A stretch of 39,628 nt of DNA from IMG/VR virus record IMGVR_UViG_2565956762_000004; one strand, given 5' to 3'. The position numbers and the translations under genes were made by a program. The notes beneath the pieces are model-generated. The model saw nothing but the letters and a program-made list of their open reading frames with translations. It made no database searches and was not told the origin of the DNA. Source of the DNA: a virus. Taxonomy: Duplodnaviria; Heunggongvirae; Uroviricota; Caudoviricetes. This document shows positions 2,503 through 35,213 of this stretch, one piece after another (within the stretch, counting starts at the first letter, position 1; the number at the start of each line of letters is the position of its first letter).

Positions 2503-4392
2503 ATGAAATCCGAAACGCTAACCATCCAGCAAATTTTCCAAAATCAACGACAATATCGTGTTCCATTCTATCAACGTGCCTACGTATGGACGCAACGAAA
2601 CCAATGGTCAGCTTTGCTGGAGGATATCTTCGAAAAAGCACAGAGCCGACTTTCGGGAACAAAACCAACCCCTCATTTCCTCGGCGCGGTGGTGCTGGAA
2701 CCTCAACTCAAAAACAGCTTGTTAGGTGTAGATACCATACATATTATTGACGGCCAGCAACGTTTAACCACTCTTCAATATATTCTGGCATCCATTCGAT
2801 TATCATTGCGTGCTACAGGCCTTTCTGAACTGGAAGGGTTAGTATTGACTTGCTTGAAAAATACAAACGAAGCAACGATGAGAAATAAAAAGGTAGAATG
2901 CTTCAAACTGTGGCCAACTTTTCGAGATCAAACTCATTTTATTCAAAGTCTTAATGTTGATAATATTGACGATCTCCGTAATGTATTTTCTGATAGCTTC
3001 ACGCAACATGGTACGTTACGTAAACATTTCAACCACCCGCCGTCACTAGAGGCATTATGGTTTTTTACTGAAGCCTTTATAAAATGGATTAAAATAGAAA
3101 ACCACTCACCACAAGAAAATGCTGTAGCACTAATTGAGGCTGTCTTGACGGATCTGAAACTGGTAAGCATATTTCTCGAAGCTGAAGATGATGCCCAAAT
3201 AATTTTTGAAACATTAAATGGGCGAGGAGCGGAACTTCATGCAACGGATCTTATTCGCAACTATATCTTTATGTGCGCTGAGCATGAAAATATTAATGCT
3301 ATTGAATTATATGAAAATGAGTGGAAGATCTTTGAAGATAAATACTGGTCGGAAAAGCAACGCCGTGGACGTATTAATAAACCACGCATGGAGTGGCTTG
3401 TACATGCGACATTGCAATCAGAAAGGCAGCGTGAAATTGATCTGTCTCGCCTTTACAATGAGTATCGTGATTATGTAAGTAAGGACTTGCCTTCACAACG
3501 AGCAGATCTGCAAGTAAAGCGCCTCAAACAATATGCATCACAATATAAAGAATTGGTTGGTGGTTTTGGCACAACCCCCATCTCACACTTTGGACATCGC
3601 ATCGCAGCCTATGATGTGACGACACTCTATCCGCTTGCTTTGTTCATTTCGATAGCTAACATCGCCGATGATGAGAAAGCAGCCATGTATAATGATCTTG
3701 TCTCCTACGTAGTACGAAGATCCGTATGTGGCCTGACGCCAAAGAATTACAACAATGTATTTATGAATGTATTGCGACACTTGTCTAAAACGGAAATTTC
3801 CAGTGTTGAGTTACGTAATATCCTCAATAGCTTAAATGGCGAAGCCTCACGTTGGCCTGGGGACTCAGAATTTCTCAACGCTTGCATCAATGCTCCACTT
3901 TATCCTGGCAGGCTCGACGCACCGAAAATGCGCTCAATGTTAACGGAACTTGAAAGAGAACTTTGTCGCCAAGTGAAGACAGAAAAGCCTGATGTTCCAA
4001 ATCTTTCTAATCTCGATATCGATCATCTTATGCCTCAAAGTTGGTATTCCTGTTGGCCTCTCGAAAATGGTCATATGGTGACAAATTCAGATGCTACGGT
4101 AATGAACCAAATTGTTCTGTCTGGAACCGATCTTACCCCTGAACAGCTACTGGTAAGGAAACGGCAACAAGCGATAGCTACGTTGGGAAATCTAACTTTG
4201 CTTAACCTTAGCGTAAACCGTTCCGTTCAGAATGCTGTATTTCTGAAAAAACGTGATGCTCTCATCGTCCACACCAATCTACGACTGAACATACCACTTA
4301 TACTTAAGGATAAATGGGATGAGAGTGAAATACTGGAGCGAGGTAAAAAGTTGGGGGAAATTGCATTGAAAGTATGGCCAAAATACGATTAA
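2503..4392 (+). CDS. DUF262/DUF1524 (GmrSD-family) putative type IV modification-dependent restriction endonuclease, 629 aa
   Basis: N-terminal DGQQR motif (IIDGQQRLTTL) typical of DUF262; C-terminal DIDHLMP His-Me finger motif typical of DUF1524. GC below phage average. Confidence 0.7.
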   Translation: MKSETLTIQQIFQNQRQYRVPFYQRAYVWTQRNQWSALLEDIFEKAQSRLSGTKPTPHFLGAVVLEPQLKNSLLGVDTIHIIDGQQRLTTLQYILASIRLSLRATGLSELEGLVLTCLKNTNEATMRNKKVECFKLWPTFRDQTHFIQSLNVDNIDDLRNVFSDSFTQHGTLRKHFNHPPSLEALWFFTEAFIKWIKIENHSPQENAVALIEAVLTDLKLVSIFLEAEDDAQIIFETLNGRGAELHATDLIRNYIFMCAEHENINAIELYENEWKIFEDKYWSEKQRRGRINKPRMEWLVHATLQSERQREIDLSRLYNEYRDYVSKDLPSQRADLQVKRLKQYASQYKELVGGFGTTPISHFGHRIAAYDVTTLYPLALFISIANIADDEKAAMYNDLVSYVVRRSVCGLTPKNYNNVFMNVLRHLSKTEISSVELRNILNSLNGEASRWPGDSEFLNACINAPLYPGRLDAPKMRSMLTELERELCRQVKTEKPDVPNLSNLDIDHLMPQSWYSCWPLENGHMVTNSDATVMNQIVLSGTDLTPEQLLVRKRQQAIATLGNLTLLNLSVNRSVQNAVFLKKRDALIVHTNLRLNIPLILKDKWDESEILERGKKLGEIALKVWPKYD

Positions 4393-4414: not shown

Positions 4415-4438
4415 GCGGCCTTACATTAGTAAGGCCGC
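4415..4438 (+). terminator. perfect 10-bp hairpin GCGGCCTTAC-ATTA-GTAAGGCCGC, 23 bp after the restriction gene stop
   Basis: Perfect inverted repeat seen in sequence; no clean T-run, so termination role is uncertain. Confidence 0.4.
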
Positions 4439-4617
4439 AACTCACTATTAAATCCTTTAATTTGCATCAAGAACAGCACTGTCAGCCCTAGGCTCTCGGA
4501 CTTTGTACCGCTTATCTTGTCTTCAAAAATCAGCTCGCATCCTGCACAGTTCAACGCATTACGTTGTAGATCTGTGTTCTGGTCATTTATTGATACGCGT
4601 ACATAGCTAATAAGCAT
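4426..4617 (-). pseudogene. pin: truncated Pin/Gin/Hin-family serine DNA invertase (first ~40 codons only)
   Basis: MLISYVRVSINDQNTDLQRNALNCAGCELIFEDKISG matches the invertase N-terminus with the catalytic Ser; similarity is lost after ~40 residues and the ORF stops at 63 codons. Confidence 0.7.
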
Positions 4618-4672
4618 GTTAAATCCCCCCAAGTAAAAGCAGGAATGATGCCATTTGCTCGTTATTTCTGCA

Positions 4673-4698
4673 TTTTCATAAACGTTGGTTTGGGAGAA
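4673..4698. repeat. invertase crossover site, left (TTTTCATAAACGTTGGTTTGGGAGAA)
   Basis: Reverse complement TTCTCCCAAACCAACGTTTATGAAAA nearly equals the site at 6518-6543; palindromic AAACC/GGTTT centre as in gix/cix-type sites. Confidence 0.65.
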
Positions 4699-5145
4699 GG
4701 TTCTGCATTACCTGTTGGGGTGCCTGTTCCGTGGCCTTCAGCCACTCCGCCAACAGGCTGGCTGAAATGCAACGGTGCGCCTTTTTCTGCCGAAGAGTAT
4801 CCGGAACTGGCAAAAGTTTACCTGACAAATAAATTGCCTGATTTACGCGGTGAGTTTATTCGTGGCTGGGATGACAGAAGAGGAATAGATACTAGCCGTA
4901 GCTTGCTTTCATCACAGGGCGATGCCATTCGAAATATAATTGGTGCATTAGTGGATGTCAGGTTCAATACCTATCCTTCTGATTCTGGCGTTTTTACAAC
5001 CAGCGTCATCGGAGATGCTTCATCGGATTCAATTAAAGGTGGTTATGCAAAGCGAGTAACATTCGATGCTTCCAGAGTTGTTCCAACTGCAAACGAAAAC
5101 CGACCTCGTAACATTGCCTTTAATTATATCGTGAGGGCTGCCTGA
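4699..5145 (+). other. silent alternative tail-fibre C-terminal cassette inside the invertible segment
   Basis: Encodes GLGEGS at the crossover site, the same peptide the fibre gene encodes at 6518-6543 on the other strand; no plausible own start. Confidence 0.6.
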
Positions 5146-5753
5146 TGAATAAAGTTGTCTTAAATAACGAACTCATTGCCATAAAAGCTGGAGACATAAC
5201 CGTTTATAATTATAATGGTGAAACGCGGGAATATATTTCCACATCAACAGAATATCTTGCCATTGGTGTAGGCATTCCGGCATGTTCCTGTTTAGATGCT
5301 CCAGACTCATACAAAACTGGTTATGCAATTTGCCGTTCTGAAGATTTTAACTCATGGGTATATGTGCCAGACCATCGTGGTGAAATTGTCTATAGCACTG
5401 AAACAGGAGAATCAAAAGAAATCACAGCTCCGGGTGATTACCCTGATAATACAACCACTATCGCCCCGTTAACGCCATACGATAAATGGGATGGTGAGAA
5501 ATGGGTGACGGATACCGTGGCACAGCATAGCGCCGCAGTAGATGCAGCAGAAGCACAGCGCCAGTCGCTGATTGATACTGCAATGGCCTCCATCAGTCTG
5601 ATTCAACTGAAATTACAGGCCGGACGTAATCTGACGCAGTCAGAAACCAGCCGACTTAACACGGTGCTGGATTACATTGACGCGGTAACGGCAACAGATA
5701 CCAGCACCGCGCCGGATGTCATCTGGCCTGAACTGCCGGAGACTGCGCAATAA
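5145..5753 (+). CDS. tfa: tail fibre assembly protein (alternative-orientation set)
   Basis: 202 aa ending [13 protein letters not shown], the conserved Tfa C-terminal motif; start overlaps the upstream cassette stop (ATGA). Confidence 0.65.
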   Translation: MNKVVLNNELIAIKAGDITVYNYNGETREYISTSTEYLAIGVGIPACSCLDAPDSYKTGYAICRSEDFNSWVYVPDHRGEIVYSTETGESKEITAPGDYPDNTTTIAPLTPYDKWDGEKWVTDTVAQHSAAVDAAEAQRQSLIDTAMASISLIQLKLQAGRNLTQSETSRLNTVLDYIDAVTATDTSTAPDVIWPELPETAQ

Positions 5754-5922
5754 ACTCACCATCAATATATAAATCCCCCTGCTGTGTGTCAGCAGGGCAT
5801 TCTTTCCATATTAATGATGGATGGAATCTTCCTTCAGGATTAATTTCCGTTATCTCTTCTACTTTATTTTCTTCAATTCTTGCCCACATATGAACCTCAC
5901 CAGTAAATATAAACTGCGCCAT
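5719..5922 (-). CDS. short tail fibre assembly-like protein (currently expressed set)
   Basis: Start chosen at MAQFIF (ATG 5922-5920); converges on and overlaps the 3' end of the plus-strand tfa by 35 bp. Confidence 0.35.
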
Positions 5923-6820
5923 CTGCTCCGGCACCCGACTGACCCGTTGATGAATTAGGACATAATCCAGCACCGCCACCTCCAGGCCCAACTGCTGATA
6001 CCGCTTTTCCGTTAGCTGTATCTCTGAATGAACCTGCTCCTCCGGGGCCACCACCAGAACCACCATTACCAGCTCCCGATGCGGCAGACGCAATGGAACC
6101 TGGAGAACCTGGCCCAAGCGATGTATTAATTGTTCCCCCAACACCAACTGCGCCTAACCCTCCGGAAGGCTGGCCTCCGCTATAGCCTCCGGAAGCTGAC
6201 ATGTAAGTCCCGAAACTGCTCGAGCCACCATTTTTACCGTTTACAGAAATACCAGACACAGGCGCACCACCGGCACCAACCGTAATCGAAACACTGTTAA
6301 TACCAGTTAAATCTACCAGTCCCTCAGCAACTCCGCCCCCACCACCTCCTCCGCCACATGTAACGGCTGAAGCGGTTATTGAACCTATCCCTCCTGACGC
6401 ACCGCCACCAATAACTTTGACGTAACATTTTCTTCCTTTGCGCAACTCTTCAGGAACAGTCCAGCTTGTTACTCCAGCCGTTGTGAAGGCAACTAGATTT
6501 CTGAACCCAAATGAGCCTTCTCCCAAACCAAGGTTTTCGAGAGCCGTTTTCACCGTGCCATCCGATTTGATATCGCCAAACGGATTCTTGCGGCTTAACA
6601 GCAGCGCACGAAGCGCGGTAAGCAACTGGTCGTGCCGCCCCTTCTCCAGGCTGGCACCGGATGCCTCCACCACGCTGCAAAGCTCCTCCTGCAACATGTC
6701 AAAGTAGTCATCATCCAGATCGGTGGCAGGTGTGCCGGTCTGGGGGTTACCACGGGTAAAACCGTTCTTACCCGCGCCGAACTTATCCTTCTGCGCGGTT
6801 TTCGTGTCTATACGATGCAT
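5897..6820 (-). CDS. tail fibre protein (constant N-terminus fused to the currently selected variable C-terminus)
   Basis: 307 aa, glycine-rich repeats; N-terminus [46 protein letters not shown] typical of side tail fibres; crossover site inside the gene. Confidence 0.75.
6518..6543. repeat. invertase crossover site, right (TTCTCCCAAACCAAGGTTTTCGAGAG)
   Basis: Inverted copy of the 4673-4698 site; conserved half TTCTCCCAAACC identical. Confidence 0.65.
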
Positions 6821-11879: not shown

Positions 11880-12410
11880 TTAGCGAGTCAGAAACAACGA
11901 ATCTTTATACTTTTGCTGTTGTTCATTTAAATACTTAGCTGTTTCATCGCTGGCAAATGGAAATATTACCGTATTTTTAGGCATGGTAATTTCTTTTTTG
12001 TCCAGCGTCAGAGTAAACATAGGAACATACTGAGCAGAGTAACGCACCGCAGAAATGAGCTCTAGTTTAGACTCTTCAACAACACTTAAATTATCCAGGC
12101 TAACTTTCTCTTCATCTTTTTTCTTTGACGCATTTAAAGTTTTTATTACTTTATTTAATTTCTCCTGAAAATCCTCCTTAAAGTTTTCAGGATTGCCGTC
12201 GACAACAAGAATCTGTTCACCCTGATTATCTGGAAAAATAATCTTTGCACTTATCAATTTATTTTCTTTATAAACATCACCAAGTTTTATGGCTCCTCCA
12301 GATAACTGAATAATATGTTCATCTTTAAAGGAGATGTTGCCAGAGATTATGAGAGATGAAAAAATAGCCGCTGCTCCAAGAATTACACTTGCTGTGATAT
12401 AGCCTTTCAT
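11880..12410 (-). CDS. low-GC moron: signal-anchored hypothetical protein, 176 aa
   Basis: N-terminal hydrophobic segment ITASVILGAAAIFSSLIISG without lipobox Cys; K/E-rich remainder; own terminator; placed between tape measure and DNA circulation genes. Confidence 0.6.
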   Translation of the reverse strand: MKGYITASVILGAAAIFSSLIISGNISFKDEHIIQLSGGAIKLGDVYKENKLISAKIIFPDNQGEQILVVDGNPENFKEDFQEKLNKVIKTLNASKKKDEEKVSLDNLSVVEESKLELISAVRYSAQYVPMFTLTLDKKEITMPKNTVIFPFASDETAKYLNEQQQKYKDSLFLTR

Positions 12411-16759: not shown

Positions 16760-17320
16760 TCAGGAAGGAAGGGTTATTTCGGTGTGATGTTCGATATCGC
16801 CGTCAGGCCCGTTACCGGGCTCGAGATAATCAACATCAATCGCCAGCGTTTGCAGTTCATCCAGACTGTTCAGATCATCCTGCTGGCGGGTATCGTCTTC
16901 AGTCAGCTCGCTGATGACCGAAAAATCGAACTGATAAATCAGCTCATGACGATTCAGATCCAGCAGCGTGCCACCGTCATAGGTAATCGGGTTACCGCAC
17001 GCCTCCGGGTTCCAGCCCAGCAGAGCCTTAAAGAGCATCTGCCGGACATCGTCCACCACATCATACGAGGCAAACTGACCGCGCTCATCACGCCCGTTAC
17101 TCAGTATGACAACCACGGAGAAACCCTCTTTCAGCTCCTGCCAGTAGTCGGTCTGGCTTTTGTTTTCTCCCGGAGAATCATCACCCGGTACAACATATGC
17201 CGCCGGGAGTTTCAGCTTTCCGACCTCCGGCAGATTTTTGAACTGGGCCGCGCCTGCAACCCGGTTTTCAAAATACGGACAGCGGGCACGCAGTGCAGCA
17301 ATAACAGGCGTCAGTTTCAT
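16760..17320 (-). CDS. Mu gp36/gp37-like virion protein
   Basis: 186 aa, acidic, in conserved position upstream of the sheath gene. Confidence 0.45.
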   Translation of the reverse strand: MKLTPVIAALRARCPYFENRVAGAAQFKNLPEVGKLKLPAAYVVPGDDSPGENKSQTDYWQELKEGFSVVVILSNGRDERGQFASYDVVDDVRQMLFKALLGWNPEACGNPITYDGGTLLDLNRHELIYQFDFSVISELTEDDTRQQDDLNSLDELQTLAIDVDYLEPGNGPDGDIEHHTEITLPS

Positions 17321-17823
17321 CTGTGTCGTCGCTCCGGCTTCAGTGATTTACGCAATTCCCGCGCCAGAAAATAGCGTGTCCAACTGCGGTTCTTTTCAAG
17401 CGTTTCCACCATGAAGTTATTACGTGGAGCCAGTCGCCAGCCGCTGCCACCGGATGCACCACGATGATGGCTGCGACGACGCTTTGCCCCTCGCCTCACG
17501 CCATAGAACAAAAAAGCTGGATAAAAATCACCGGTGATACGGCGGTTTCCCTCTCCATTACGCTGGTTAGGGGCTATACGTGCCATAAAACCAGGGCGAT
17601 GTTTACTGGCTCTGGGTACCATGTAACCAATCGAACGAGCCAGGCGTCCGGTCTGATAACCGGGGTTTTCACCCGGTGCCGACCGCGCACGGCGCATCAC
17701 CAGCCGACGGGCATCACGCATATGACGCTGACCAATCGTGACAAAAGCCCGCCGGACACGGGCGCGGTTAAAGCGCATCTCCGCGGGCTGCTGAAAATCA
17801 ACGTGCAAAAAGGAAGTCGCCAT
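17317..17823 (-). CDS. HK97 gp10-like virion morphogenesis protein (start moved to MATSFLHV)
   Basis: Arg-rich basic protein between head-tail joining and tail genes; the N-terminal extension in the ORF track overlaps the upstream gene. Confidence 0.45.
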   Translation of the reverse strand: MATSFLHVDFQQPAEMRFNRARVRRAFVTIGQRHMRDARRLVMRRARSAPGENPGYQTGRLARSIGYMVPRASKHRPGFMARIAPNQRNGEGNRRITGDFYPAFLFYGVRRGAKRRRSHHRGASGGSGWRLAPRNNFMVETLEKNRSWTRYFLARELRKSLKPERRHR

Positions 17824-18208
17824 TGTTGCCTCCGTGACTCTGCCTACATTCGCCCAGCTCCGTACACTCCAGCAGCAGAAAACGCCGCGCCCCATTCAGA
17901 TCGCGCTGACGTTTCACCCGGTACACACTGTCACCGCAGACCACCTCATAATCAGCGGTGATCCCCCGGCGGTAACGAATGGTGATGTAATGAGTGATGG
18001 CATCTCCGGTCTGCGCGGTTTCCTGCCAGGTGGTGGCACTGGTCTGGACAACCTTCGCCCATGTCCGGAACGTAACCGGGTATTGAGGCTCCACGCCAAA
18101 GTTATCCGCGGGCATATCCACCCGCTGGCGGATCAGGACGCGTTTATTCAGTTCACCGGGGTCCGGCAGAATGTAGGTTGCGCTGGTCTGCGCCTGACGA
18201 ATTTTCAT
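17798..18208 (-). CDS. head-tail adaptor / head closure protein
   Basis: 136 aa in conserved head-tail joining position. Confidence 0.6.
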   Translation of the reverse strand: MKIRQAQTSATYILPDPGELNKRVLIRQRVDMPADNFGVEPQYPVTFRTWAKVVQTSATTWQETAQTGDAITHYITIRYRRGITADYEVVCGDSVYRVKRQRDLNGARRFLLLECTELGECRQSHGGNNGDFLFAR

Positions 18209-18528
18209 TGCGGAAAGTACCTGTACGGGCCGACAAGCCAGCCAAAACTCTGCGGCATGTCGAGTTTCTCCACTTCCGTAACCGACGAGCGGTTTTCGTA
18301 AAAATGGCTGATAAGCATCAGCATCCCCAGACGAATATCATCCGGCAGGTGCAGCCCGTCCGGATCGCTGTCCGGAATGGTTTCATCCGGTGCATAGAGC
18401 TTCCGGTTCAGATACGTTTCCGTCCGCTTTTGCGCCGCACAGGCCAGCAGTTGCAGATGGCGGTCATCAGCATCGAAATCCTCATCCAGCCGGAGTTGGG
18501 CTTTAATCTCTTCCATTGTCAGAAGCAT
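18205..18528 (-). CDS. gp6-like head-tail connector protein
   Basis: 107 aa, N-terminus MLLTMEEIKAQLRLDEDFDADD typical of the family. Confidence 0.6.
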   Translation of the reverse strand: MLLTMEEIKAQLRLDEDFDADDRHLQLLACAAQKRTETYLNRKLYAPDETIPDSDPDGLHLPDDIRLGMLMLISHFYENRSSVTEVEKLDMPQSFGWLVGPYRYFPQ

Positions 18529-18530
18529 AC

Positions 18531-18731
18531 TCAGCCCTCTTTACTGGTCGTGGCTTTTTTCTCTTTTGTCGCTTTACTGCTTTTTGCACTGGTTCCGCGC
18601 TCTGCTAACCCGGCCTGAAGTGCAATCTCCTGCACCTGGGCAGGAAGCGCCCCGTCGTCATACTCACCGGCCCGAATGACCTCAACACGCATACCGTCCG
18701 GTGACCATTTCAGATCTTGTTTCAGGATCAT
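18531..18731 (-). CDS. small head-associated hypothetical protein
   Basis: 66 aa with Lys/Thr-rich tail, directly after the capsid gene. Confidence 0.35.
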   Translation of the reverse strand: MILKQDLKWSPDGMRVEVIRAGEYDDGALPAQVQEIALQAGLAERGTSAKSSKATKEKKATTSKEG

Positions 18732-18779
18732 GATTCTTCACCCGTCAGAACAGGGGCGCGGTTCCGCGCCCCTGAGTGA

Positions 18780-19985
18780 TTACGCCACTGCAATCTTCAG
18801 CAGTTTGATGGCCTGCGAATCGACCAGCATGCCGCCGGTGCGTTTGGTGGTATAAAAACCGACAAACGGTTTATTGGTGTACGGGTCACGCAGAATGCGG
18901 GTGCCGATACGGTCAACGATGGTGTAACCCCGTTTGAAGTTACCAAATGCAATGGCTTTCGCATCAGCGGCGATATCCGGCATCTGTTCGTTTTCAGCGA
19001 TACCGTAACCCGCCAGAGAGGACGGCTGCCCCAGCTCCAGCCCCGGACGCCACAGATAGTTACCCTCGCTGTCTTTCAGCAGACGGATGGCAAACAGGCT
19101 GTTGTTGTTCATCATGAACTTCGCACCGGTGCGGTGTGCCTTACGCAGTGTGTAAATAAGTTTGATAATGGCGTCTGCGGTCACCGCAGTCGCTTCGCCG
19201 GATACAATATGCTGAAGTTTGCCGAACGCCCGGACCTTATCGGTTTCATCAGTGGATTCATACGCCAGGAACCCTTTCGGCTTCTTGGTGCCATCGCCTG
19301 AGGTAAAGGCAATTTCTTCCTGTTCGGCAAATTCGGTTGCCAGCTCGCTGTTGATCCAGGCCTCCACGTTGAAGAAGGCATCGTCCAGCATTTTCTGGGT
19401 GGCCTGCGGGTTGCCGTAGATTTCCCCCATGAGAGGTTCAATCAGCTCCAGTTTGGAGGTGGCAGTCTGGGATCGCGTATCCGTTTCCCCCACCCATCCG
19501 GAAGCCGTGCCGCCCAGATTCACCAGTTTTTTGTAGTCGGAACCGCCAACGGTGATCACCGTGGCTTCCTAGCGCATCACCACTTCATCTTTCAGCAGGG
19601 TGAGAATGTTGCGATCCAGCGCTTCCGGCACGGCATAGCCACCGTCTTCATCGGTGCCCACCTGCAATGCCTTACGCTCCAGATCGCGCAGACCATCTTC
19701 ACGGCCTTTACGCAGGAAGCCCACAAACGCTTCTTTATGCTCGGTGGCCAGTTTATTTTGCGCACCACCTGCCGGACGTTTCAGCTCAAGCAGCTCTTTT
19801 TCAAGATCGCTTTTGAGGTTTTCCAGCTCGCTGAGTTTCCCGTTCAGGGTTTCCACCTGCCCGGCAAGTTTGCCTTTTTCCTGCTCAATCGCATCCACGC
19901 GCTTGTCGTTCTTTGCTTTGAAGTCGTCAAACTTCTGCTGCAGCTCCTGCGCGACCTGTTCGACATCTTTAATATCTACCGCCAT
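18780..19985 (-). pseudogene. HK97-family major capsid protein gene interrupted by an in-frame TAG (19569-19571)
   Basis: Upstream ORF (coiled-coil delta domain) and downstream ORF (capsid body) share one frame; read-through gives ...DEVVMR*EATVITVGG... Confidence 0.7.
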
Positions 19986-19999
19986 CGTATTTCTCCTGA

Positions 20000-20686
20000 T
20001 TAGAAGTTCAGATTTTTCAGTGCATTCAGTGCAGAGCTCACATCCTCAGCGTCGCGCAGGGACAGTGCGCTATAGCCCCCGGCCATGAATGCTTTGGCCT
20101 GGGTACGGGAGAGTCCGACATCACGCAGGACTCTTTCGATTTTTTTCTGTTCGGGGATTTCCCCGCGGGCCAGCGCGTTCTTGACGTCGCTGATCCGTGC
20201 CTCGTCGTTAGACGGGAACGTCACCAGACTGACTTCCCAGAGGTCGATTTCTTTCAGCAGAAAGGCTTCTTTCGTCCGGTCGTATTCCCAGTCCTTCAGG
20301 ACGTACCCAATAGAAAGGCCGGTTAACGAACCGGCCTTCATGTGTGCATGTGCGCGTTTTGCCAGGGGATCATCATCAATGAGCAACCGCCCCCTGACGT
20401 AAAGCCCGACATCGTCTTCCTTCATTTCGGTGTAAACACCGATGGGCTCATCCATGCGGTGCTGCCAGAGCAGCGCAGGTAACGCTTTTCTGTCACTCCA
20501 CGCCCGCAGGGAAGCAGCAAATGCCCCGGACATCACCACATCATCGTGGCTGTCCTTTACACCAAAGACGGAGCCATACCCTTCAAACTCCCCGGAGTCA
20601 CTGACAGATTTCAGACTCAGCGGTACATCAAGACGTTGTTTCGTCTGCATTGGCGTTATCCTTCTGCTTACCGGCTTTACTGCCAT
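20000..20686 (-). CDS. prohead maturation protease (HK97 family)
   Basis: 228 aa between portal and capsid genes. Confidence 0.7.
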   Translation of the reverse strand: MAVKPVSRRITPMQTKQRLDVPLSLKSVSDSGEFEGYGSVFGVKDSHDDVVMSGAFAASLRAWSDRKALPALLWQHRMDEPIGVYTEMKEDDVGLYVRGRLLIDDDPLAKRAHAHMKAGSLTGLSIGYVLKDWEYDRTKEAFLLKEIDLWEVSLVTFPSNDEARISDVKNALARGEIPEQKKIERVLRDVGLSRTQAKAFMAGGYSALSLRDAEDVSSALNALKNLNF

Positions 20687-21869
20687 CGGAGGGTTTCGTG
20701 GTCATGTTCATCGGTGTGAGATAGACATCACCACCGGGACGCGGATTCATATCTTCCAGGTCGCGGCAGTCATTGGGAGAGTAAATTCCCCAGTTGATCC
20801 CGGTGGCGTAGGCTTCAAAACGGGACTTCATATCCCCGCGCAGTAACGCCCCGGCGTTAAATTTGGCGTAATAAACGCCCTGCTTACTTTTTCGTACCAG
20901 TCCGGTGTTGATCCGCTGTTCGATGCGGGTCAGATACGGCACCAGTGAATAGTTGATAAATCCCAGCCCCAGCTCTTCGATATTGTTGAAGGTGGCGCGA
21001 TCGGTGTTCTGCACCATGTGCAACGGCACCCGGAACAGACGACAGATTTCTTCAAGCTGAAACTTGCGGGTTTCCAGGAACTGGCTGTCCTCGGCGTTCA
21101 GCGCCATCGACTTCCAGTCCAGCCCCATCTCAAGGATCATCGGGCGGTGAGCATTGCCAAGCCCGGTGTGACGCTCCTCAAAATCTTTCTTCAGGCGCTC
21201 ATAAGCCTGATCTGACAACGTCTGCTCTGTACGCAACACACCCGACGTCACCGCGCCATTGCTGAACAGTCTGGCCCCGTGCTCTTCGGTCGCTGCCGCC
21301 AGCGATATTGCCTCGCGGGCATAGGCGATGGGATTCAGCCCCACCAGTCCGTCCAGCGTCAGCGTGCGCACATGCCAGATATCCTCCTGGCTCAGTACAT
21401 CCGTGGAGCCATCCGGGAATGTGACCTGATAGACCGGCTCCCAGCTACTGTTAAGCTTCGGTACCACACAGCCGGGATCGACGGGCAGCAGTTCAGCCAC
21501 TTCGCCAAATGCTTTCACTTTGTAGGCGTAAAAGTTTCCCCGCAGGCACAGACAGGTGACCACCAGCTCCCAGAACTCCTGCGGCGTCATATAGCCATTG
21601 GGATGCGTGGAGATCAGCTTATGCAGACGTTCGCCGGTGGCTCTCTGCTTCAGGCTGCCGTTCAGGTGATACAGGTTGCAGGGCAACATCCCGACCGACT
21701 CCGCCAGCACCCTGACACAGGAAAAAACCGCCGTCAGTCGCATGGCCCTCTGGCTGCTGATCTGCTTTCCGGTATAGGTGTCGTAGGACAACCCGATAGC
21801 ATCCGCCAGCTCTGCTGGCGTGGTCACCGGTGCGTCACTTTTTCGTTGAAATAATCCCGAAAAGAACAC
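20628..21869 (-). CDS. portal protein
   Basis: 413 aa downstream of terminase large subunit. Confidence 0.8.
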   Translation of the reverse strand: MFFSGLFQRKSDAPVTTPAELADAIGLSYDTYTGKQISSQRAMRLTAVFSCVRVLAESVGMLPCNLYHLNGSLKQRATGERLHKLISTHPNGYMTPQEFWELVVTCLCLRGNFYAYKVKAFGEVAELLPVDPGCVVPKLNSSWEPVYQVTFPDGSTDVLSQEDIWHVRTLTLDGLVGLNPIAYAREAISLAAATEEHGARLFSNGAVTSGVLRTEQTLSDQAYERLKKDFEERHTGLGNAHRPMILEMGLDWKSMALNAEDSQFLETRKFQLEEICRLFRVPLHMVQNTDRATFNNIEELGLGFINYSLVPYLTRIEQRINTGLVRKSKQGVYYAKFNAGALLRGDMKSRFEAYATGINWGIYSPNDCRDLEDMNPRPGGDVYLTPMNMTTKPSDGSKAGKQKDNANADETTS

Positions 21870-22051
21870 TATTTACCTCCGCCGACAGACGACTGTGTAC
21901 GGTCGAGATATCGCGCCACCAGCCACGACCAGAACAGGCACAACGCCCCGGCAACAACAAACCCCGCCGGGGGATAAATCAGCCAGGCACCATAAGCCAG
22001 CAAAAGCGCCCCCAGCACGCCCACCAGAGGCGCGAGAATCAGCATGATCAT
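21869..22051 (-). CDS. small 2-TM membrane protein
   Basis: 60 aa, two hydrophobic helices, fills the terminase-portal gap. Confidence 0.35.
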
Positions 22052-22062
22052 AATTACCTCAG

Positions 22063-23796
22063 TTAAAGCGAGCGGATCCCATAGGACTCAATGTGGTCAG
22101 ACAGCGTGTCTTCTTTCTCGTACAGCATGGCTCTGCCAACCGCCATAATCAGCGCAACTGCACCATCGATTTTGTTTTCCGCCTGCTCTTTGACGGGCTT
22201 CACCACATCATCGTTACCCGGAATGGTTTTGCCGACCACGTTGCCGATACACCAGGTCATGATGGGATTGCCATCATGATGAAAGCGCCCCGATTCAATT
22301 GCCGCTTCCAGCTCTTTCATCGGGTCGGACATGTTGGTGTAGTTCTGAATGATGGTGACGGGGTTCAGGTCTTCATCAGCAAGGTCATGTGACAACCCGG
22401 TCGCCCCGAAGGGGTCGATGGGTGACTCGCTGACCGGGCTGATTTTGTTCGCCGCTTTGGCCTCTTCGAGGATGTAGCGATAATCCACCTCTGCACCATC
22501 GGTAACGGTCAGGACGCCCATTTCCACCCATTTCTGAAAGCGTTCGGCTGTCCGGCGATCTTCATTTTTCTCGACGCTATACACCGTGTCATACGGTACC
22601 CAGAAACGCGGGGCCACACTGTAGTAATGCGTTTTACCGTCAATCTCGCGGGTATAAAGTCGCGCCATGCTGTTCATATCCAGCTTACGCGCCAGGTCAA
22701 AGGCCAGAATGCACGGCTGCCCCTCGAACTGCTCAAGAGTCAGTGATTTATCCTCGCAGCTCTGCCAGCTCACCAGGTTGAAATACGCCGAACGCGCCGA
22801 CACCCAGATATTGAGGTGTTTTGTTTTAAAGACGTTTGCCAGACGGGCGTTATTTTTCGCACGTTGCTGCTGGCTTAACAAAAAATCGCGATAAACCGAC
22901 ACACCGATATTCGGGTTAGCTTTTTCAAGTACCTGCGGGTCGGTCCAGTCGTCGCCTTCGTCAACGGTATAGATGATCCCGAACAGTTCATCGTTGGGCA
23001 CCGAGCCGTTGAGCATCTCGATGACTTCCCGCCGTTTGTCGTAGCACGGCCCCTCAATGTTGTACCCGGCGGTGGTAATGGCCCACATCAGTGGCTGGCG
23101 TCGCGCCCCCATCCCGGTAAGCATCGTGGTGTAAAGCGCATCTGTGGCGTGCTCGTGATATTCATCCACCACGGCACAGTGGGGTGATGAACCATCACCG
23201 GGGTTACCGATCAACGGTTCAAACCGCGCACCATCCTCCGGACGGTTCATGTTTGAGGCGTTAACCTCAATCCCGAACGCTTCCGTCAGCATGGGTGTGC
23301 GTTTACACATCAGTCGTGCCGGACGAAAGACTTCCCATGCCTGTTTCTCCGTCGTGGCACCGGAATACACTTCCGCGCCGAACTCGTTATCACAGGCAAA
23401 ACAATACAGGGCAACACCGGCAGAGATTGCCGATTTGCCGTTCTTACGGGGAATTTCGGTATACACCTCCCGGAAGCGGCGCAACCGGGTGCCTTTATTG
23501 ACCCAGCCAAACGCACAGCAGATCACAAATAGCTGCCACGGCTCCAGCGTGATGGGCATCCGTTTAAATGCCCACTCACCCTTGGTGTGCGGCAACAGCT
23601 GAATAAATTTGGCGGCCCGTTCAGCCAGGTCCTTGTCGAAGCGGTAACGAAACGACTTACTTTTTTCCGCCATCAGGTCATCAAGATGGCGCTGGCAGGC
23701 CTGAATCACAAACTGGCAGGCAACAATCTTTCCGCGCACGACATCCCGGGCATACTGATTTGCAGCATTTACGTTGGGGTAAGATTTCCGGCTCAT
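22063..23796 (-). CDS. terminase large subunit
   Basis: 577 aa, size and position between small terminase and portal. Confidence 0.85.
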
Positions 23797-24296
23797 GATT
23801 CGATAATTTTCAGAAACGGGTTAGTGGCTTTCTTCTGCCCCGCCAGGCCAATCAGACGCTGGCGGCTGCTGGGGTCGAGTCCGAGCATTGCCCCCGTACT
23901 GCTCATCTCGGACTCCTGTTCTTTTTTGGCGGTCAGCTCCGGATTTTTGACCATGCCGCCCATTGCACCGGTGATGGTGTTGCCCTGTCTGGCAATATTT
24001 TTCACAGCACGTCGCCAGAACTCATAGGCTACGCACCACCGCTCAAGCACTGCGAGGTCAGTCACGCACAGCAGGCCCTGACCGCAGAGTTCTTTGGTTG
24101 TCAGTTGCCACATGATCGTGGCGAGAGGGAGCTCTTCTTCAGCGAACCACTCCGGTGGCTCAACACCTTTGATGGGCGTAAAAACGGGTTCATCTTTGTT
24201 CAGGGCTCGCTTGCCGGGGTTTCCGGCCAGCGCCTTGCGCGCCGTTGGCTTGGGGCGACGCCCGGAACGCCCCGCCGTTCCAGCCATATGCGGCAC
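23793..24296 (-). CDS. terminase small subunit
   Basis: 167 aa, basic N-terminus, overlaps the large subunit start. Confidence 0.65.
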
Positions 24297-24412
24297 TCCT
24301 GGTTAAATTTCATTTTTCGCGGGTATAAAAAAACGATGGGGCGGGCAGTCCGGAAGACGTCAGGTCACAGGGATTTGACCCGCCCCTCCCCTCTGGCAGT
24401 GGGAGCTGGTTC

Positions 24413-24763
24413 TTACTTCAGCCATTCACGGGCCGTCTTCGCCTTATGACACGGCCAACACAGGCTCTGTAGATTACTGTCGGCATCAGTGCCGCCACGC
24501 GCTTTAGGGATGATGTGGTCAACGGTCTTCGCCTCACGTACCACACCAGCACGCAGACATAACTGACACAGACCTTTGTCACGCTTCAGGACACGCGCGC
24601 GGATAACATCCCACTTAGAACCATAACCGCGCTGATGACGGGATTGTCCTGACTTGTATTGCTTCCAGCCTTCGCTTTTGTGGCTTTCGCAGTAGCCTGA
24701 CGGGTCTGTCGTGGTATTACGGCAGCCGCGAACGCGGCAGGCTTTTGGAGTTCGGGGGGGCAT
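24413..24763 (-). CDS. HNH endonuclease (packaging-associated)
   Basis: 116 aa with Cys pairs and VDHIIPKARGG...N...CWPCH motif, upstream of terminase. Confidence 0.75.
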   Translation of the reverse strand: MPPRTPKACRVRGCRNTTTDPSGYCESHKSEGWKQYKSGQSRHQRGYGSKWDVIRARVLKRDKGLCQLCLRAGVVREAKTVDHIIPKARGGTDADSNLQSLCWPCHKAKTAREWLK

Positions 24764-24789
24764 AAATATATTCCTGTTCTTTGTCCGGA

Positions 24790-25062
24790 CTATTTGCCTG
24801 CTGCCAGCAAAGCGTTACGGCGCATCTCGATATTTCGAATCCCCGCTTTGTCAATATTGCATTGTCCCAACGCCGAAAGCAGGCTCACATTCAGATCCAG
24901 ACTGGCCCCATAGGTCAGCGGCTCGGGAATGACTGGCTGGGGAGTTTCAGTAGTCAGGCTTGCTGGCAACGGTACCGCCGGAATCGGTACGTAAACTGTT
25001 CGCGTACTTCCGCAACCGGTCAGCAGCGGCAGCAGGCACATGACGTGAAGCACAATCATCAT
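24790..25062 (-). CDS. o-spanin (Rz1-like lipoprotein)
   Basis: Lipobox LLTGC after a short signal peptide; Pro-rich; overlaps the 3' end of the i-spanin gene in another frame. Confidence 0.5.
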   Translation of the reverse strand: MMIVLHVMCLLPLLTGCGSTRTVYVPIPAVPLPASLTTETPQPVIPEPLTYGASLDLNVSLLSALGQCNIDKAGIRNIEMRRNALLAAGK

Positions 25063-25339
25063 CCGCAACAGCCACTTTGATATCTTCCTGGGTTCTCTGT
25101 GACTCCAGTACGATCTGCTGTTTTGCATGCTGGTTAGCCTCTATAACTGTATTGATGATTTGCAGTGATTGCAGAACGTTACGGGTAATGGCAGTTGCTG
25201 ATTCAGCATTTCGTACAGCCTCATCAGCACGCTCCTTTTCGTGCTGATATTTGCTGTAGTAATGCCCGGTAGACCAGATGAAGGAATCAATGACGGTAAC
25301 AAAGAAGGCAACAATAACCAGCTTATATCTCAGCTTCAT
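24947..25339 (-). CDS. i-spanin (Rz-like)
   Basis: 130 aa, N-terminal TM helix then coiled-coil, directly after endolysin. Confidence 0.55.
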   Translation of the reverse strand: MKLRYKLVIVAFFVTVIDSFIWSTGHYYSKYQHEKERADEAVRNAESATAITRNVLQSLQIINTVIEANQHAKQQIVLESQRTQEDIKVAVADDDCASRHVPAAAADRLRKYANSLRTDSGGTVASKPDY

Positions 25340-25799
25340 TTACTTCCCCACCAGCCTCTTTAAATCGGGCAATCAGGTCGCCTATTTTATGTTCATACTG
25401 ACCATAACCTGCACCAGGTAACGACGCCCAGATATTGCTGCAACGGTCGATTGCCTGACGAATATCACCGCGATCAATCATCGGTAAAGCGCCACGCTCC
25501 TTAATCTGCTGCAGCGCAACAGCATCCTGGCTTTTCGGAGAGAAGTCTTTCAGTCCAAGTTGCTTACGGTAAGCATCCCACCAACGGGAAAGAAGCTGGT
25601 AACGTCCGGCTGCTGTTGATTTGAGTTTGGGGTTTAGCGTGACAAGTTTGCGAGGGTGATCGGAGTAATCAGTAAACAGTTCGCCGCCAACAATAACGTC
25701 ATAACCGTGGTTACGTGTCGGTTGTCGCCCGTTATCCGTTCCTTCTGACCAGGCCACCATATCAAGGAAAGCTTTACGCTGAGGATTTAGTTCCTGCAT
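25323..25799 (-). CDS. endolysin, lambda R-like lytic transglycosylase
   Basis: NPQRKAFLDMVAWSEGTDNGRQPTRNHGYDVIVGGELFTDYSDHPRKLV is nearly identical to lambda R as I recall it. Confidence 0.85.
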   Translation of the reverse strand: MQELNPQRKAFLDMVAWSEGTDNGRQPTRNHGYDVIVGGELFTDYSDHPRKLVTLNPKLKSTAAGRYQLLSRWWDAYRKQLGLKDFSPKSQDAVALQQIKERGALPMIDRGDIRQAIDRCSNIWASLPGAGYGQYEHKIGDLIARFKEAGGEVNEAEI

Positions 25800-25802
25800 A
25801 AA

Positions 25803-26129
25803 TTACTCCTTCGAGCTACCAAACTTGTTACCGATTACTCTCATTGCCGCACCACGAATAGCATCGACCCCGATCAGCCCAACGCCGCCACCAATGGCAA
25901 CAGAAAGAGATTTAGGCCATCCGACATACTCAAGAGCGGATGCAAAAGTCAGTGTCAGAGCGCCACAGAGAAAAATCTCGAGCGTTTTTCGCTTCCAGCC
26001 ACCACCACCGCCAAAATAGGCAATGCGCAAGCCAGCCATAACGATCGACATAATTACTGCGCCCAGTGGTGTGTCTCCACGCCACCAGCTCTGGAACAAC
26101 TCCAGCCAGGTATTTGGGTTATGAGGCAT
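25803..26129 (-). CDS. holin
   Basis: 108 aa with hydrophobic helices and charged C-terminus, immediately upstream of the endolysin. Confidence 0.5.
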   Translation of the reverse strand: MPHNPNTWLELFQSWWRGDTPLGAVIMSIVMAGLRIAYFGGGGGWKRKTLEIFLCGALTLTFASALEYVGWPKSLSVAIGGGVGLIGVDAIRGAAMRVIGNKFGSSKE

Positions 26130-26274
26130 TTGTAGTTATCTCTCACCTCGCCGATAAAGGAGGTGCAAATTGAGGGTGTACCACGAACCGCAAATCAGAA
26201 GCGGAAACGTAAAAGAAGCCGAGCCAATGGATAACTGCGGGATAGGGCAGAAGCAATTAATCCCTAGGCCCAGA

Positions 26275-26303
26275 AACGACAAAACCCGCTCGACGGCGGG
26301 TTT
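26275..26303 (-). terminator. tR'-like hairpin in the late leader
   Basis: Minus strand AAACCCGC-N6-GCGGGTTT followed by TGTCGTTTC, upstream of the holin. Confidence 0.3.
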
Positions 26304-26426
26304 AAGTTGTGTGGCGAAGTAACCACTCATAACAGATTACAATGGTTTCTGCGGACCGCGTGAGTGATTTTATTTAATTTTTAATGTAAATTTCAGTTCC
26401 TTTTGAGTGATTACATGGAGTACATA

Positions 26427-27242
26427 ATGAAAGTGTTCATAAGTTGGTCTGGGCAAAGAAGTCAAGCTGTTGCAGAACTTATTAGCGACTGGCTGAAGTG
26501 TGTTATCCAAGCTTCGCAGCCATGGATTTCAACCAGAGATATTGATCGTGGCGCTATATGGTTCTCTGAAATTAATGATAAATTAAAAGATGTATCTGTC
26601 GGCATTGTATGTTTGACACAAGAAAATAAAAATAAACCATGGATTTTGTTTGAAACAGGAGCACTAGCAAAAGGACTTTCAACAAATAAAGTTTGTACAT
26701 TCTTGATTGACTTAAAACCAGAAGATTTAAAAGATCCACTTGCTCAATTCAATCACACAACGCCAAATAAAGAGAGTGTTTGGGAATTAGTAAGGACAAT
26801 AAACAATTGTCTTGTCGATAAATCTTTAGATGACCGTATTCTAAAGCAAGTTTTTAATACATACTGGGAGCAATTTGAAAACAATTTTAAACGAGCTTTA
26901 GATCAATACCCTCCAACTGAAGAAGTAAAACCACGTACTGAACAAGATCTTTTATCTGAAATATTACAAAACACTCGTTCATTAAATCAAAGGATTAGAG
27001 TTCTTGAACGTGATGCTACTATCAACTCCATAAATAGCCATATGAATTTAACTCCTGTAGAACAGAAGGATGTTTGGTATCTACAAAAACAGATAGATGA
27101 AATTATAAAGAATGGATTGCTTGACGAGGATGAAATAATATCATTCTTAGACAAATATGACATTCCTGAAAAAATGATTAGGAACCAAATAAAATACACA
27201 TTAAACCAACGATTATCTGAAAGTAATAAAAAAAAGAAATAA
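26427..27242 (+). CDS. TIR-like domain protein with helical C-terminal extension (start chosen at MKVFISWSG)
   Basis: KVFISWSG...W.S...I..G..W......L......GIVCLT.EN...PWILFETGA fits the bacterial TIR pattern; GGAG 6 nt before the ATG; low GC; opposite strand to neighbours. Confidence 0.6.
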   Translation: MKVFISWSGQRSQAVAELISDWLKCVIQASQPWISTRDIDRGAIWFSEINDKLKDVSVGIVCLTQENKNKPWILFETGALAKGLSTNKVCTFLIDLKPEDLKDPLAQFNHTTPNKESVWELVRTINNCLVDKSLDDRILKQVFNTYWEQFENNFKRALDQYPPTEEVKPRTEQDLLSEILQNTRSLNQRIRVLERDATINSINSHMNLTPVEQKDVWYLQKQIDEIIKNGLLDEDEIISFLDKYDIPEKMIRNQIKYTLNQRLSESNKKKK

Positions 27243-27245
27243 CCT

Positions 27246-27281
27246 TCCCCCGTAAACATAAAGTTTACGGGGTTATTTTTT
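27246..27281 (+). terminator. strong intrinsic terminator between the TIR-like gene and Q (convergent, probably bidirectional)
   Basis: Perfect 10-bp stem CCCCGTAAAC/GTTTACGGGG followed by TTATTTTTT. Confidence 0.65.
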
Positions 27282-27282
27282 A

Positions 27283-27648
27283 TTATAACTCCATATCTAA
27301 ATGAATATCGAGAGTAGAAAGGCAACCATCAATGAATCCCTCTGCTAACAATATTTCTATACGGATTAATTTCTCATCCTTTCCTTGTATTTTGGCAATC
27401 TTCCGCTTTGAAAACCCGTACAAATAATGCGCAACCAGTAAAGAATGCTCATAAGGTTTTCTTTTTTTTAGTTGCTCCAAGCAACTTTCAATAATTAGCG
27501 CATCATTATCTGAACAAGCTTGGCGTGCCTTACTGGTATAGGGAAGAAGTCCCTTAAACCCAGCAGCTATAGGCGAATAGTCCACTCCTGAGCTATCACT
27601 AGCTGCCCATGCCCCCCAACGTTCAAGGATGATCTGAATATCACGCAT
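27283..27648 (-). CDS. late antiterminator Q (QuuD-like)
   Basis: MRDIQIILERWGAWAA...IAAGFKGLL resembles the short Q family; position upstream of the lysis cassette. Confidence 0.7.
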   Translation of the reverse strand: MRDIQIILERWGAWAASDSSGVDYSPIAAGFKGLLPYTSKARQACSDNDALIIESCLEQLKKRKPYEHSLLVAHYLYGFSKRKIAKIQGKDEKLIRIEILLAEGFIDGCLSTLDIHLDMEL

Positions 27649-27665
27649 CAAATTTCTCCACAAAA

Positions 27666-28661
27666 TCAGGCCAGCACGCCTATTTCCAGCGCACGATCGA
27701 TAAAACGAAATATCAGCTCCAGCTGGGAGCCATACTTCTCTTCAAATGCCACGGTATCCGCATGCAGCTCGTCGTGATGCTTTCTGCACAAAGGCAACAC
27801 AAAGAGGTCATGCGCTTTTGTACCCATTCCCCCCTGACCGTGGCCTATCAGGTGGTGGGGATCATCAGCAGGTTTTCCACAACATGCGCACGGCTGCGTC
27901 TTAACCCAGCGCGTGTACTTTTCATTAACCCAGCGGCGACGTTTTGGGCGTAACATAAAAGACTCCGGCGACTCCGGATCCACTTTCAGCGCCAGCATCT
28001 TTTTCGCCTTATCCTGGATGATGCTGGTGGCAGGAACCGAAGGCACAAGGTCACTTTCCCGGGTGACAGACGGCACAACAGGCTTCGGTAATCTCAGTGC
28101 CTTACGGGCTGCACTTTCCGGTAAGGCATCCGCCAGGTCATTACGAATCAGCCACCAGCACAGTTCCGGCATTGTCACAACGTGACTATAATCAAAACCG
28201 AGATCCCGACGCACAACAGACAACACCCAGCGGGCACAGTTATCCGTTGCCATTGATTCCAGCCGTTCCGTGAACTGATCGCGCAGCTGGTTATCACAGT
28301 GCCAGCACAGACGGATTGCGCCCGGAGCGTGTCGCATTGTGGTAATGTTCTCGCTGTGCCAGTCGGAATGAGGCCACTGACAGCCCTTTTCACGAAGTAA
28401 CCAGCTTTCAAGACATTCCACGCCACCAGCACGACGGATCACTGCCTCATTGCGGAACACGGCCCGAACGGCAGGATCATCCACCAGCGGTTGTGATGCC
28501 GCCGGAACGGCACCACTGGCGAAAGATGAATAACATTCCGGCTCAGGCTCCAGCAGGACACGCCCCTGCATAAACAGGGGCATCAGCTCTGAACCTGGCC
28601 TGAACAATACGATCCCCATACGCGGGGCAATTTCAGGAGTCAGTAGTGCTCTCACGGTCAC
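27666..28661 (-). CDS. DUF968-like phage protein with C-terminal HNH-like zinc finger
   Basis: C-terminus CACCGKPADDPHHLIGHGQGG...PLCRKHHDELH. Confidence 0.5.
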   Translation of the reverse strand: MTVRALLTPEIAPRMGIVLFRPGSELMPLFMQGRVLLEPEPECYSSFASGAVPAASQPLVDDPAVRAVFRNEAVIRRAGGVECLESWLLREKGCQWPHSDWHSENITTMRHAPGAIRLCWHCDNQLRDQFTERLESMATDNCARWVLSVVRRDLGFDYSHVVTMPELCWWLIRNDLADALPESAARKALRLPKPVVPSVTRESDLVPSVPATSIIQDKAKKMLALKVDPESPESFMLRPKRRRWVNEKYTRWVKTQPCACCGKPADDPHHLIGHGQGGMGTKAHDLFVLPLCRKHHDELHADTVAFEEKYGSQLELIFRFIDRALEIGVLA

Positions 28662-34449: not shown

Positions 34450-34713
34450 GTCCACCTCGCCTGATGTGGCTAAAAGCAGGCACATAACAGCTAAGTATTT
34501 TCAACCAGAGAGAATCCTTAGCGTTGTGGTGAATGCTGCTCAGCGCACGCGGGTTAAGGTTGAGGCTGACAGTCGACCTTCTGTGGATACCCACCCGCCT
34601 GGTGTGCAACCTTCGCCAGGCACCGGGAGGCACCCGGCACCACAACTTTATGCTGTGTGTAGTCTTGGCGGTACCAGCTTGTACCCTTGCTTCCGGCTGG
34701 TACCGTCCTTTTT

Positions 34714-34802
34714 ACAAAACAGAGAAGAGCATCACCGGACGACGGGCTCATAACTCAATCCATCCGGGCGGCTGCCACCGCAGGTGTTCTTCTCTGTTTT
34801 GT
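34714..34802 (+). other. long imperfect hairpin (17-bp arms ACAAAACAGAGAAGAGCA / TGTTCTTCTCTGTTTTGT, ~53-nt GC-rich loop) within a GC-rich non-coding island
   Basis: Arms are reverse complements with one mismatch; a second 9-bp-stem hairpin lies at 34670-34704. Confidence 0.4.
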
Positions 34803-34850
34803 GGAGAAACTAATCGGCCTTGCAGGGTCGATATGATGAGGAGCAGCAAA

Positions 34851-35213
34851 ATGGCTAGCGAACGCAGTACTGATGTGCAGGCATTTATCGGGGAGCTGGA
34901 CGGCGGCGTATTTGAAACCAAAATCGGCGCAGTTCTCAGTGAAGTCGCTTCCGGTGTGATGAACACGAAAACCAAAGGTAAGGTCTCACTCAACCTGGAA
35001 ATCGAACCATTTGATGAGAACCGAGTGAAAATCAAACACAAACTCTCATATGTTCGCCCGACTAACCGCGGGAAAATTTCTGAAGAAGACACCACCGAAA
35101 CGCCGATGTATGTCAATCGCGGTGGTCGCCTGACTATTCTGCAGGAAGACCAGGGACAATTACTGACTCTTGCCGGTGAACCTGACGGAAAACTCCGCGC
35201 AGCAGGTCATTAA
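34851..35213 (+). CDS. hypothetical early protein, 120 aa (YfdP-like by size and neighbours)
   Basis: GAGGAG 7 nt before ATG 34851; the longer ORF-track N-terminus is Arg/Cys-rich and non-protein-like. Confidence 0.5.
   Translation: MASERSTDVQAFIGELDGGVFETKIGAVLSEVASGVMNTKTKGKVSLNLEIEPFDENRVKIKHKLSYVRPTNRGKISEEDTTETPMYVNRGGRLTILQEDQGQLLTLAGEPDGKLRAAGH

Follow-up and report, generated by a model that had tools for sequence, protein, structure and literature searches.

The major capsid gene of an otherwise complete prophage at icd in Escherichia coli has very probably been lost through a recent amber mutation, which changed Gln139 from CAG to TAG, likely by deamination at a Dcm site. The window, that is, the whole stretch of 39,628 nucleotides analysed here (IMG/VR record IMGVR_UViG_2565956762_000004), is 99.98-99.99% identical to a segment of E. 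coli strain 1190 (NZ_CP023386.1, 2821074-2860701). The amber allele is already on record in the RefSeq annotation, where PGAP labels the gene in NZ_CP023386.1 as a pseudogene, 'phage major capsid protein, internal stop'. The event is a case of ordinary, recent prophage decay; its components are of well-known kinds, and it involves no new biological principle.

The interrupted capsid gene

The gene lies at 18780..19985 on the minus strand and reads, in translation, as 138 sense codons, TAG, 262 sense codons and TAA. It corresponds to 401 codons predicted to encode a major capsid protein with the HK97 fold and a fused N-terminal scaffold (delta) domain, and the amber at codon 139 (19569..19571, minus strand) makes it a pseudogene. 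The fragment of 138 sense codons upstream of the stop (19572..19985, minus strand) comprises the coiled-coil scaffold domain and the first part of the N-arm, and public assemblies list it as a gene of 138 aa. The remaining capsid domain is contained in a downstream ORF of 259 codons (18780..19559, minus strand). This ORF begins with an in-frame GTG at 19559 (codon 142), located three codons past the TAG and preceded by AGGAAG. In the ORF list, the 138-aa ORF (19569..19985) and the 259-aa ORF are in a common frame with nine bases between them. A preliminary description of this DNA had reported one TAG at 19569-19571 splitting two ORFs of the same frame, and the translation and the ORF list bear out these coordinates.

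The TAG is a real allele because it is replicated in independent complete genomes and in hundreds of contigs. Twelve independent complete E. coli genomes have the 1206-nt gene with its TAG at 100% identity, and a 13th has it at 99.9%; the carriers were obtained from dog, chicken, human, and lake water in several countries and come from different laboratories. A 61-mer centred on the TAG is present exactly in 13 of 948 genomes and is one base off in 940 of 953 records. The exact 138-aa product occurs in 699 contigs in NCBI, ENA, JGI and Logan, and in 1178 indexed blocks of a public assembly collection. One source name attached to this product is 'phage major capsid protein, partial [Salmonella enterica serovar Derby]', which reflects either a mislabelled or contaminated submission or an occurrence of the TAG allele outside E. 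coli. An IMG/VR metagenome contig, IMGVR_UViG_3300029619_000296 (28,508 bp), is also 100% identical over 11.6 kb including the TAG (window 16929-28508). The match to this contig ends at window position 28508, a coordinate equal to the length of the contig, and the window and the contig may share a start point or a source. The preliminary description had named a sequencing error as the finding that would overturn its claim. An assembly or base-calling error has only its general possibility in its favour, and the identical base in 13 complete genomes, in the metagenome contig and in 699 public contigs makes its probability negligible.

Alignments to phage SfIV and to the nearest intact alleles show that TAG and CAG differ by a single C-to-T transition. 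Codon 139 is CAG (Gln) in FDAARGOS_1287 (99.5% identity), CT29 (98.7%), and SfIV (97.1%). Further intact loci from other lineages have CAG and one continuous 401-codon gene in 22 of the 22 compared, so that CAG is found in all intact relatives examined. The records of SfIV, SfI, SfII, phi467, ST64B, and phiP27 each contain a single capsid gene, which is 1206 nt long except in the more distant phiP27. The residue aligned to codon 139 in the RcGTA capsid, whose structure has been solved, is also Gln. The preliminary description had proposed such an alignment as the way to find the sense codon replaced by TAG, which is CAG, and had considered that homologues might have two naturally separate genes at this point; the relatives compared have a continuous 401-codon gene. 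The exact Q139 revertant protein had no match among 15 billion public proteins. The mutation may thus have arisen either after lysogeny in the clone described below or just before it.

With Gln at position 139, the capsid protein matches PF05065 (Phage_capsid) at residues 115-398 over the full profile (positions 1-280, E 1.5e-79). Its best relative in the PDB is the RcGTA capsid (6tb9, E 4.6e-75; 6tb9 and 6tba, about 5e-75), which aligns with residues 31-400, and HK97 gp5 gave weak matches to the restored sequence in the same PDB sequence search. The 138-aa fragment alone had no Pfam match, and the 259-aa downstream ORF matches only profile positions 35-280 of PF05065. Approximately 88% of the Pfam capsid domain is 3' of the stop. 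The mature N-terminus of the RcGTA capsid is residue 99 in the numbering of the structural paper (PMC7296036), and it aligns with about residues 104-116 of the window capsid. In HK97, the scaffold domain comprises 103 residues, and a flexible N-arm comes after it (PMC10275583). By analogy, an N-terminal domain of ~100 residues would be removed by the protease during maturation. The preliminary division into a delta-domain ORF and a capsid-body ORF was right about the common frame and the single TAG but not about the boundary: because PF05065 spans residues 115-398, 24 residues of the capsid domain precede the stop, which does not fall between the delta domain and the body. The upstream ORF is therefore not the delta domain alone; it includes the delta domain and roughly 23-35 residues of the mature N-arm. 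The downstream 259-codon ORF, as judged from its sequence, retains the E-loop, P and A domains but neither the scaffold nor the N-arm. The intact genes for the portal protein (20628..21869, minus strand) and the prohead protease (Peptidase_S78; 20000..20650, minus strand), the latter directly upstream of the capsid gene, form a contiguous portal, protease and capsid order without a separate scaffold gene. On sequence grounds, the product of the gene is an HK97-fold capsid protein with a fused scaffold domain.

A GC-rich hairpin (GGGGCGCG-loop-CGCGCCCC, about 18753-18772) is located between the stop codon of the capsid gene and the next gene, with no T-run after it. This hairpin could be an mRNA-stabilising or attenuating element.

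The surrounding prophage and its relatives

The element is a full-length (about 37 kb) contractile-tail prophage of the e14/SfI/SfIV/ST64B type inserted at icd. The intE gene (37050-38177) is beside icd and is accompanied by xisE (36824-37069), and a duplicated icd 3' fragment (near 1530-1700) adjoins iraM at the far end of the element. In strain 1190, the intact icd gene is located beyond the right end of the window. The annotated early genes are intE, xisE, a LexA-like repressor gene, cro, replication genes, and the Q antiterminator gene. Lysis and packaging are represented by holin, lysozyme, spanin, and HNH endonuclease genes, terS, and terL. The annotated virion genes encode the portal, the S78 prohead protease, the capsid, head-tail connectors, sheath, tube, tape measure, and baseplate proteins. 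All annotated genes in the window are open except the capsid gene. The structural genes are collinear with those of SfIV, and most counterparts are equal in length. The exceptions are the tape measure protein (610 aa in the window and 635 aa in SfIV), the DNA-circulation protein (442 and 458), the tail-assembly protein (89 and 107 aa), and one small ORF (168 and 174). The earlier statement that the other structural genes are intact is consistent with these data, as all of them, and the lysis genes as well, are open and, where SfIV has an annotated counterpart, have the same length as in SfIV or differ by 6-25 aa.

The tail-fibre segment of the prophage is invertible. In the window, this segment (4680-6536) is inverted relative to strain 1190, and its orientation varies among members of the clone. 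It is flanked by 24-nt inverted repeats (4680-4703 and 6513-6536) that are typical of Pin/Gin-type crossover sites. The adjoining invertase gene is only an N-terminal remnant (4426-4632, minus strand, about 48-68 codons); therefore, flipping is either catalysed in trans or older than the truncation. Next to the attachment site, 2503-4392 (plus strand) encodes a 629-aa GmrSD-type type IV methyl-directed restriction enzyme, with a full-length match to PADLOC PDLC03655 and the Pfam domains GmrSD_N and GmrSD_C. An identical GmrSD protein is also encoded beside other prophages at the icd site. An antisense insert between the Q antiterminator and holin genes (26427-27242, plus strand) encodes a TIR-domain protein (PADLOC TIR-TM, E 1.7e-57; Pfam TIR_2), which is likely an anti-phage defence moron on the basis of these matches. 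At 34526-35213 (plus strand), PGAP calls a 'frameshifted' hypothetical pseudogene and yfdP. A single open ORF of 226 aa is present at 34533-35213 in the window, equal to SfIV_34 in a comparison of lengths rather than of aligned sequences, and the frameshift call may be an annotation artefact. Three further ORFs had no Pfam or PADLOC match: two, of 298 aa and 154 aa, in the interval from the integrase gene to icd (38293-39628, plus strand), and one of 176 aa between the tape measure and DNA-circulation genes (11880-12410, minus strand), which is absent from SfIV.

Among the deposited phages with an intact capsid gene, SfIV, SfI, SfII, and phi467 are close relatives (96.6-97.1% identity in the capsid gene), and the structural module of SfIV is collinear with that of the window prophage. 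CAG at codon 139 was seen directly in SfIV; for SfI, SfII, and phi467, the comparison relies on their annotation as one continuous gene. The cargo is different: the Shigella phages SfIV, SfI, and SfII and Escherichia phage phi467 have O-antigen modification genes, whereas the window prophage has the GmrSD and TIR-TM genes. SfIV also has a different integrase (377 aa, and 375 aa in the window). The prophage e14 of E. coli K-12 shares the icd attachment site, intE/xisE, the duplicated icd 3' fragment, and ymfK, ymfT, ymfL, ymfQ, and ymfR with the window prophage. It is a remnant of roughly 15 kb that has lost the head genes and most of the tail genes, whereas the window prophage has its full length of about 37 kb and a single lethal lesion, and is thus at a much earlier stage of decay. 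ST64B of Salmonella Typhimurium, whose capsid gene is 91% identical, is an otherwise complete prophage of the same family that a single small virion-gene lesion has made non-infectious: a frameshift in a tail-assembly gene blocks the formation of infectious particles (PMC7067206). Both ST64B and the window prophage would still be expected to be inducible and lytic. The frameshift in ST64B leads to tail-defective particles, whereas the capsid amber in the window prophage is expected to leave tails present and heads missing.

Origin and distribution of the amber allele

The mutation lies in a former Dcm site (19568..19572, minus strand), in which CCAGG has become CTAGG. The sequence is GCGCCAGGAA in the intact alleles and GCGCTAGGAA in the window; the intact context GCG CCA GGA (codons CGC-CAG-GAA) contains CCAGG, and the changed base is the inner C, the one that Dcm methylates. 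The capsid gene has only three CCWGG sites. There are 119 possible single-base changes that would create a stop codon in the gene, among which 24 are GC-to-AT transitions, and only two of these transitions fall on Dcm-methylated positions. The annotation of strain 1190 has intact copies of both dcm (472 aa) and vsr. The place of the changed base within the Dcm site makes spontaneous 5-methylcytosine deamination, left unrepaired by Vsr, the most likely origin. GC-to-AT changes at the second C of CCAGG, via 5-methylcytosine deamination, underlie the lacI amber hotspots that Coulondre, Miller, Farabaugh and Gilbert reported in 1978 (described in PMC12606429). The present change is of the same type, CAG (Gln) to TAG at the second C of CCAGG. 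The lacI hotspots were defined by laboratory-collected mutants of a chromosomal gene, whereas the amber in the window has become fixed in a structural gene of a prophage in a natural clone, at a site where methylation is presumed.

Among 5426 genomes, only 24 share a chromosomal flank of 14.6 kb by icd (rluE to ycfZ) at about 100% identity, the next best being at most 99.0% identical, and all 13 TAG carriers (13/13) belong to these 24. The carrier is an E. coli clone that includes O166:H15 strains. As far as seen in these sequences, the amber allele appears confined to this one clone, in which we infer that it has been inherited by descent. Horizontal spread of the TAG allele was considered and rejected, as the 13 complete-genome carriers share one chromosomal background. 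The single flank SNPs examined are in different genes in different strains, and two TAG carriers share one; with the SNPs thus scattered over different genes, they do not resolve gain from loss of the prophage.

Several clone members have a different state of the element. The icd site is empty in 7 of the 24, with icd joined directly to iraM (e.g., JNE21-009). ERZ28756471 has a 20-kb internal deletion (window about 14137-34408) that removed the capsid gene. GCA_964257835.1 has a mosaic prophage that retains the TAG-bearing capsid segment and has exchanged patches of terL, portal, and connector genes; since its host flank is 100% identical, the mosaic was formed within the clone. In another member with an identical host flank, a remnant is joined to a lambda-like tail module. 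Such losses, deletions, and mosaics are what would be expected of an element in which virion production is no longer under selection.

At least one other host lineage carries an intact version of the phage, since GCA_047837565.1, whose host background is different, has a sibling prophage (99.954% identity over 15.3 kb) with CAG. The capsid gene of this sibling differs from that of the window only at nt 415 (CAG) and nt 533 (R178K). GCA_029717505.1 has a near-identical prophage tail region and a host flank that is 2.6% diverged right up to the attachment site. The prophages in GCA_029717505.1 and GCA_047837565.1, both at icd, are 99.95-99.99% identical to the window prophage in the tail and structural regions. 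Host divergence that stops at the attachment site of a near-identical prophage suggests recent spread of the phage by infection.

Reading of the amber codon and consequences for the prophage

The preliminary description had offered two explanations, an inactivating nonsense mutation in an otherwise intact prophage and a codon that is read in an amber-suppressor background. The single CAG-to-TAG transition and the open state of the other structural genes agree with the former. Under the latter, TAG would be decoded by a host or co-resident amber suppressor tRNA such as supE, so that the capsid is made and the phage is viable. A supE suppressor would indeed turn this CAG-to-TAG change back into the wild-type protein, and supE alleles are present in the genome collection, with 155 exact matches among 5426 genomes in a search not restricted to carrier genomes; however, the matches listed are laboratory K-12 derivatives. 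No tRNA gene was found in the window. Strain 1190, which is nearly identical to the window, has tRNA-Gln anticodons TTG, TTG, CTG, and CTG, with CTG in both glnV and glnX, and no supE allele was found in glnV or glnX of this one host. Moreover, the prophage uses TAG as a true stop, since five other genes end in it: ymfT, Rz1, ymfR, the tape measure gene, and a small ORF. Suppression is thus highly unlikely, and this part of the preliminary description is not supported. Phages recoded from TAG to Gln are similar in having an in-frame TAG where relatives have Gln, but the window has a single such codon in one gene, no suppressor tRNA was found in it, TAG ends five of its genes, and the stop is not conserved in relatives, being limited to one clone and 13 of 948 genomes. 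Two specific candidates were also set aside: a supE host, rejected for strain 1190 on its wild-type glnV and glnX, and a phage-borne suppressor or known RNA element, rejected on empty tRNA and Rfam searches of the window, the latter having returned no family match.

The stop might instead be bypassed without a suppressor, by leaky readthrough or by a restart at GTG 142 that gives a working split capsid of the HK97 type. The position of this GTG three codons past the stop and behind AGGAAG is favourable to a restart, as is the near-independence of the HK97 scaffold domain, which is said to act like an independent protein on a flexible N-arm (PMC10275583). The Shine-Dalgarno energy before GTG 142 is nonetheless -4.2 kcal/mol, which is within the background of internal candidates (mean -3.2, sd 2.1), and weaker than for most of the annotated starts tested, which range from about 0 to -10.8 kcal/mol and are mostly between -4 and -9, with two near zero. 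RNA folding 3' of the stop was no better than that of shuffled sequence (z -0.81). The same sequence with CAG is found in about 940 genomes, so that no part of it evolved for bypass. The N-arm and profile positions 1-34 of the capsid domain would also be missing from the downstream product, and none of the homologues compared has a split capsid gene. We regard a functional bypass as very improbable, and the 259-codon ORF is probably translated poorly or not at all, judging from these sequence features. Overall, the features examined give no sign of suppression, programmed readthrough, or an evolved restart. Basal UAG readthrough in E. coli reportedly inserts Gln, which gives the wild-type capsid sequence, and could produce trace amounts of the full-length capsid.

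The remaining alternative accepts the knockout and proposes that selection has kept it, either because a prophage that does not spread provides defence genes, or through head-less tails, or through a scaffold fragment that hinders related phages. The full-length GmrSD-type restriction enzyme and the TIR-TM defence candidate on the prophage, the intact state of all tail and lysis genes, and the abundance of the allele in public data are compatible with this proposal. On the other hand, the element was simply lost in 7 of 24 clone members and has large deletions in others, and an induced cell would still die by lysis. Hardly any other mutations separate the carriers, which leaves too little time for selection to be seen, and the frequency of the allele is already explained by the success of the clone. 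Maintenance by selection therefore has only a slim chance of being correct. A similarly slim chance applies to its more specific form, in which the amber allele is a kept state that yields head-less contractile tails able to kill competitors in the manner of a tailocin, or a 138-residue fragment that poisons capsid assembly of related phages. Such a state would be triggered by induction or by a related incoming phage that switches on the late operon, and the intact tail and lysis genes and the complete scaffold domain in the fragment are compatible with it. If true, it would help explain the persistence of the allele in a globally spread clone.

For recent loss of the capsid gene, the reading that we prefer, we propose the following consequences. 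In a suppressor-free cell, translation would halt after 138 residues, that is, after the scaffold domain and part of the N-arm, and this 138-aa fragment is the only product expected to be made efficiently. The E-loop, P, and A domains of the shell would be missing, or would at best be produced in a form that lacks scaffold and N-arm. Upon induction, excision, replication, tail production, and lysis would still proceed, and no heads or infectious particles would be formed. We infer this head-less phenotype from the gene content and the position of the stop.

The window prophage cleanly illustrates two textbook processes in a natural setting: amber mutation at a 5-methylcytosine hotspot of Dcm, and the first step of prophage decay, whose later steps (deletion, mosaic replacement, and loss) are visible in its clone mates. 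For annotation, this prophage, despite its intact look, is best classed as incapable of head formation, a point that matters when inducible phages are predicted in this clone. As one T-to-C reversion or a supE host restores the wild-type protein, the element could be revived, and it represents a convenient natural conditional-lethal mutant.
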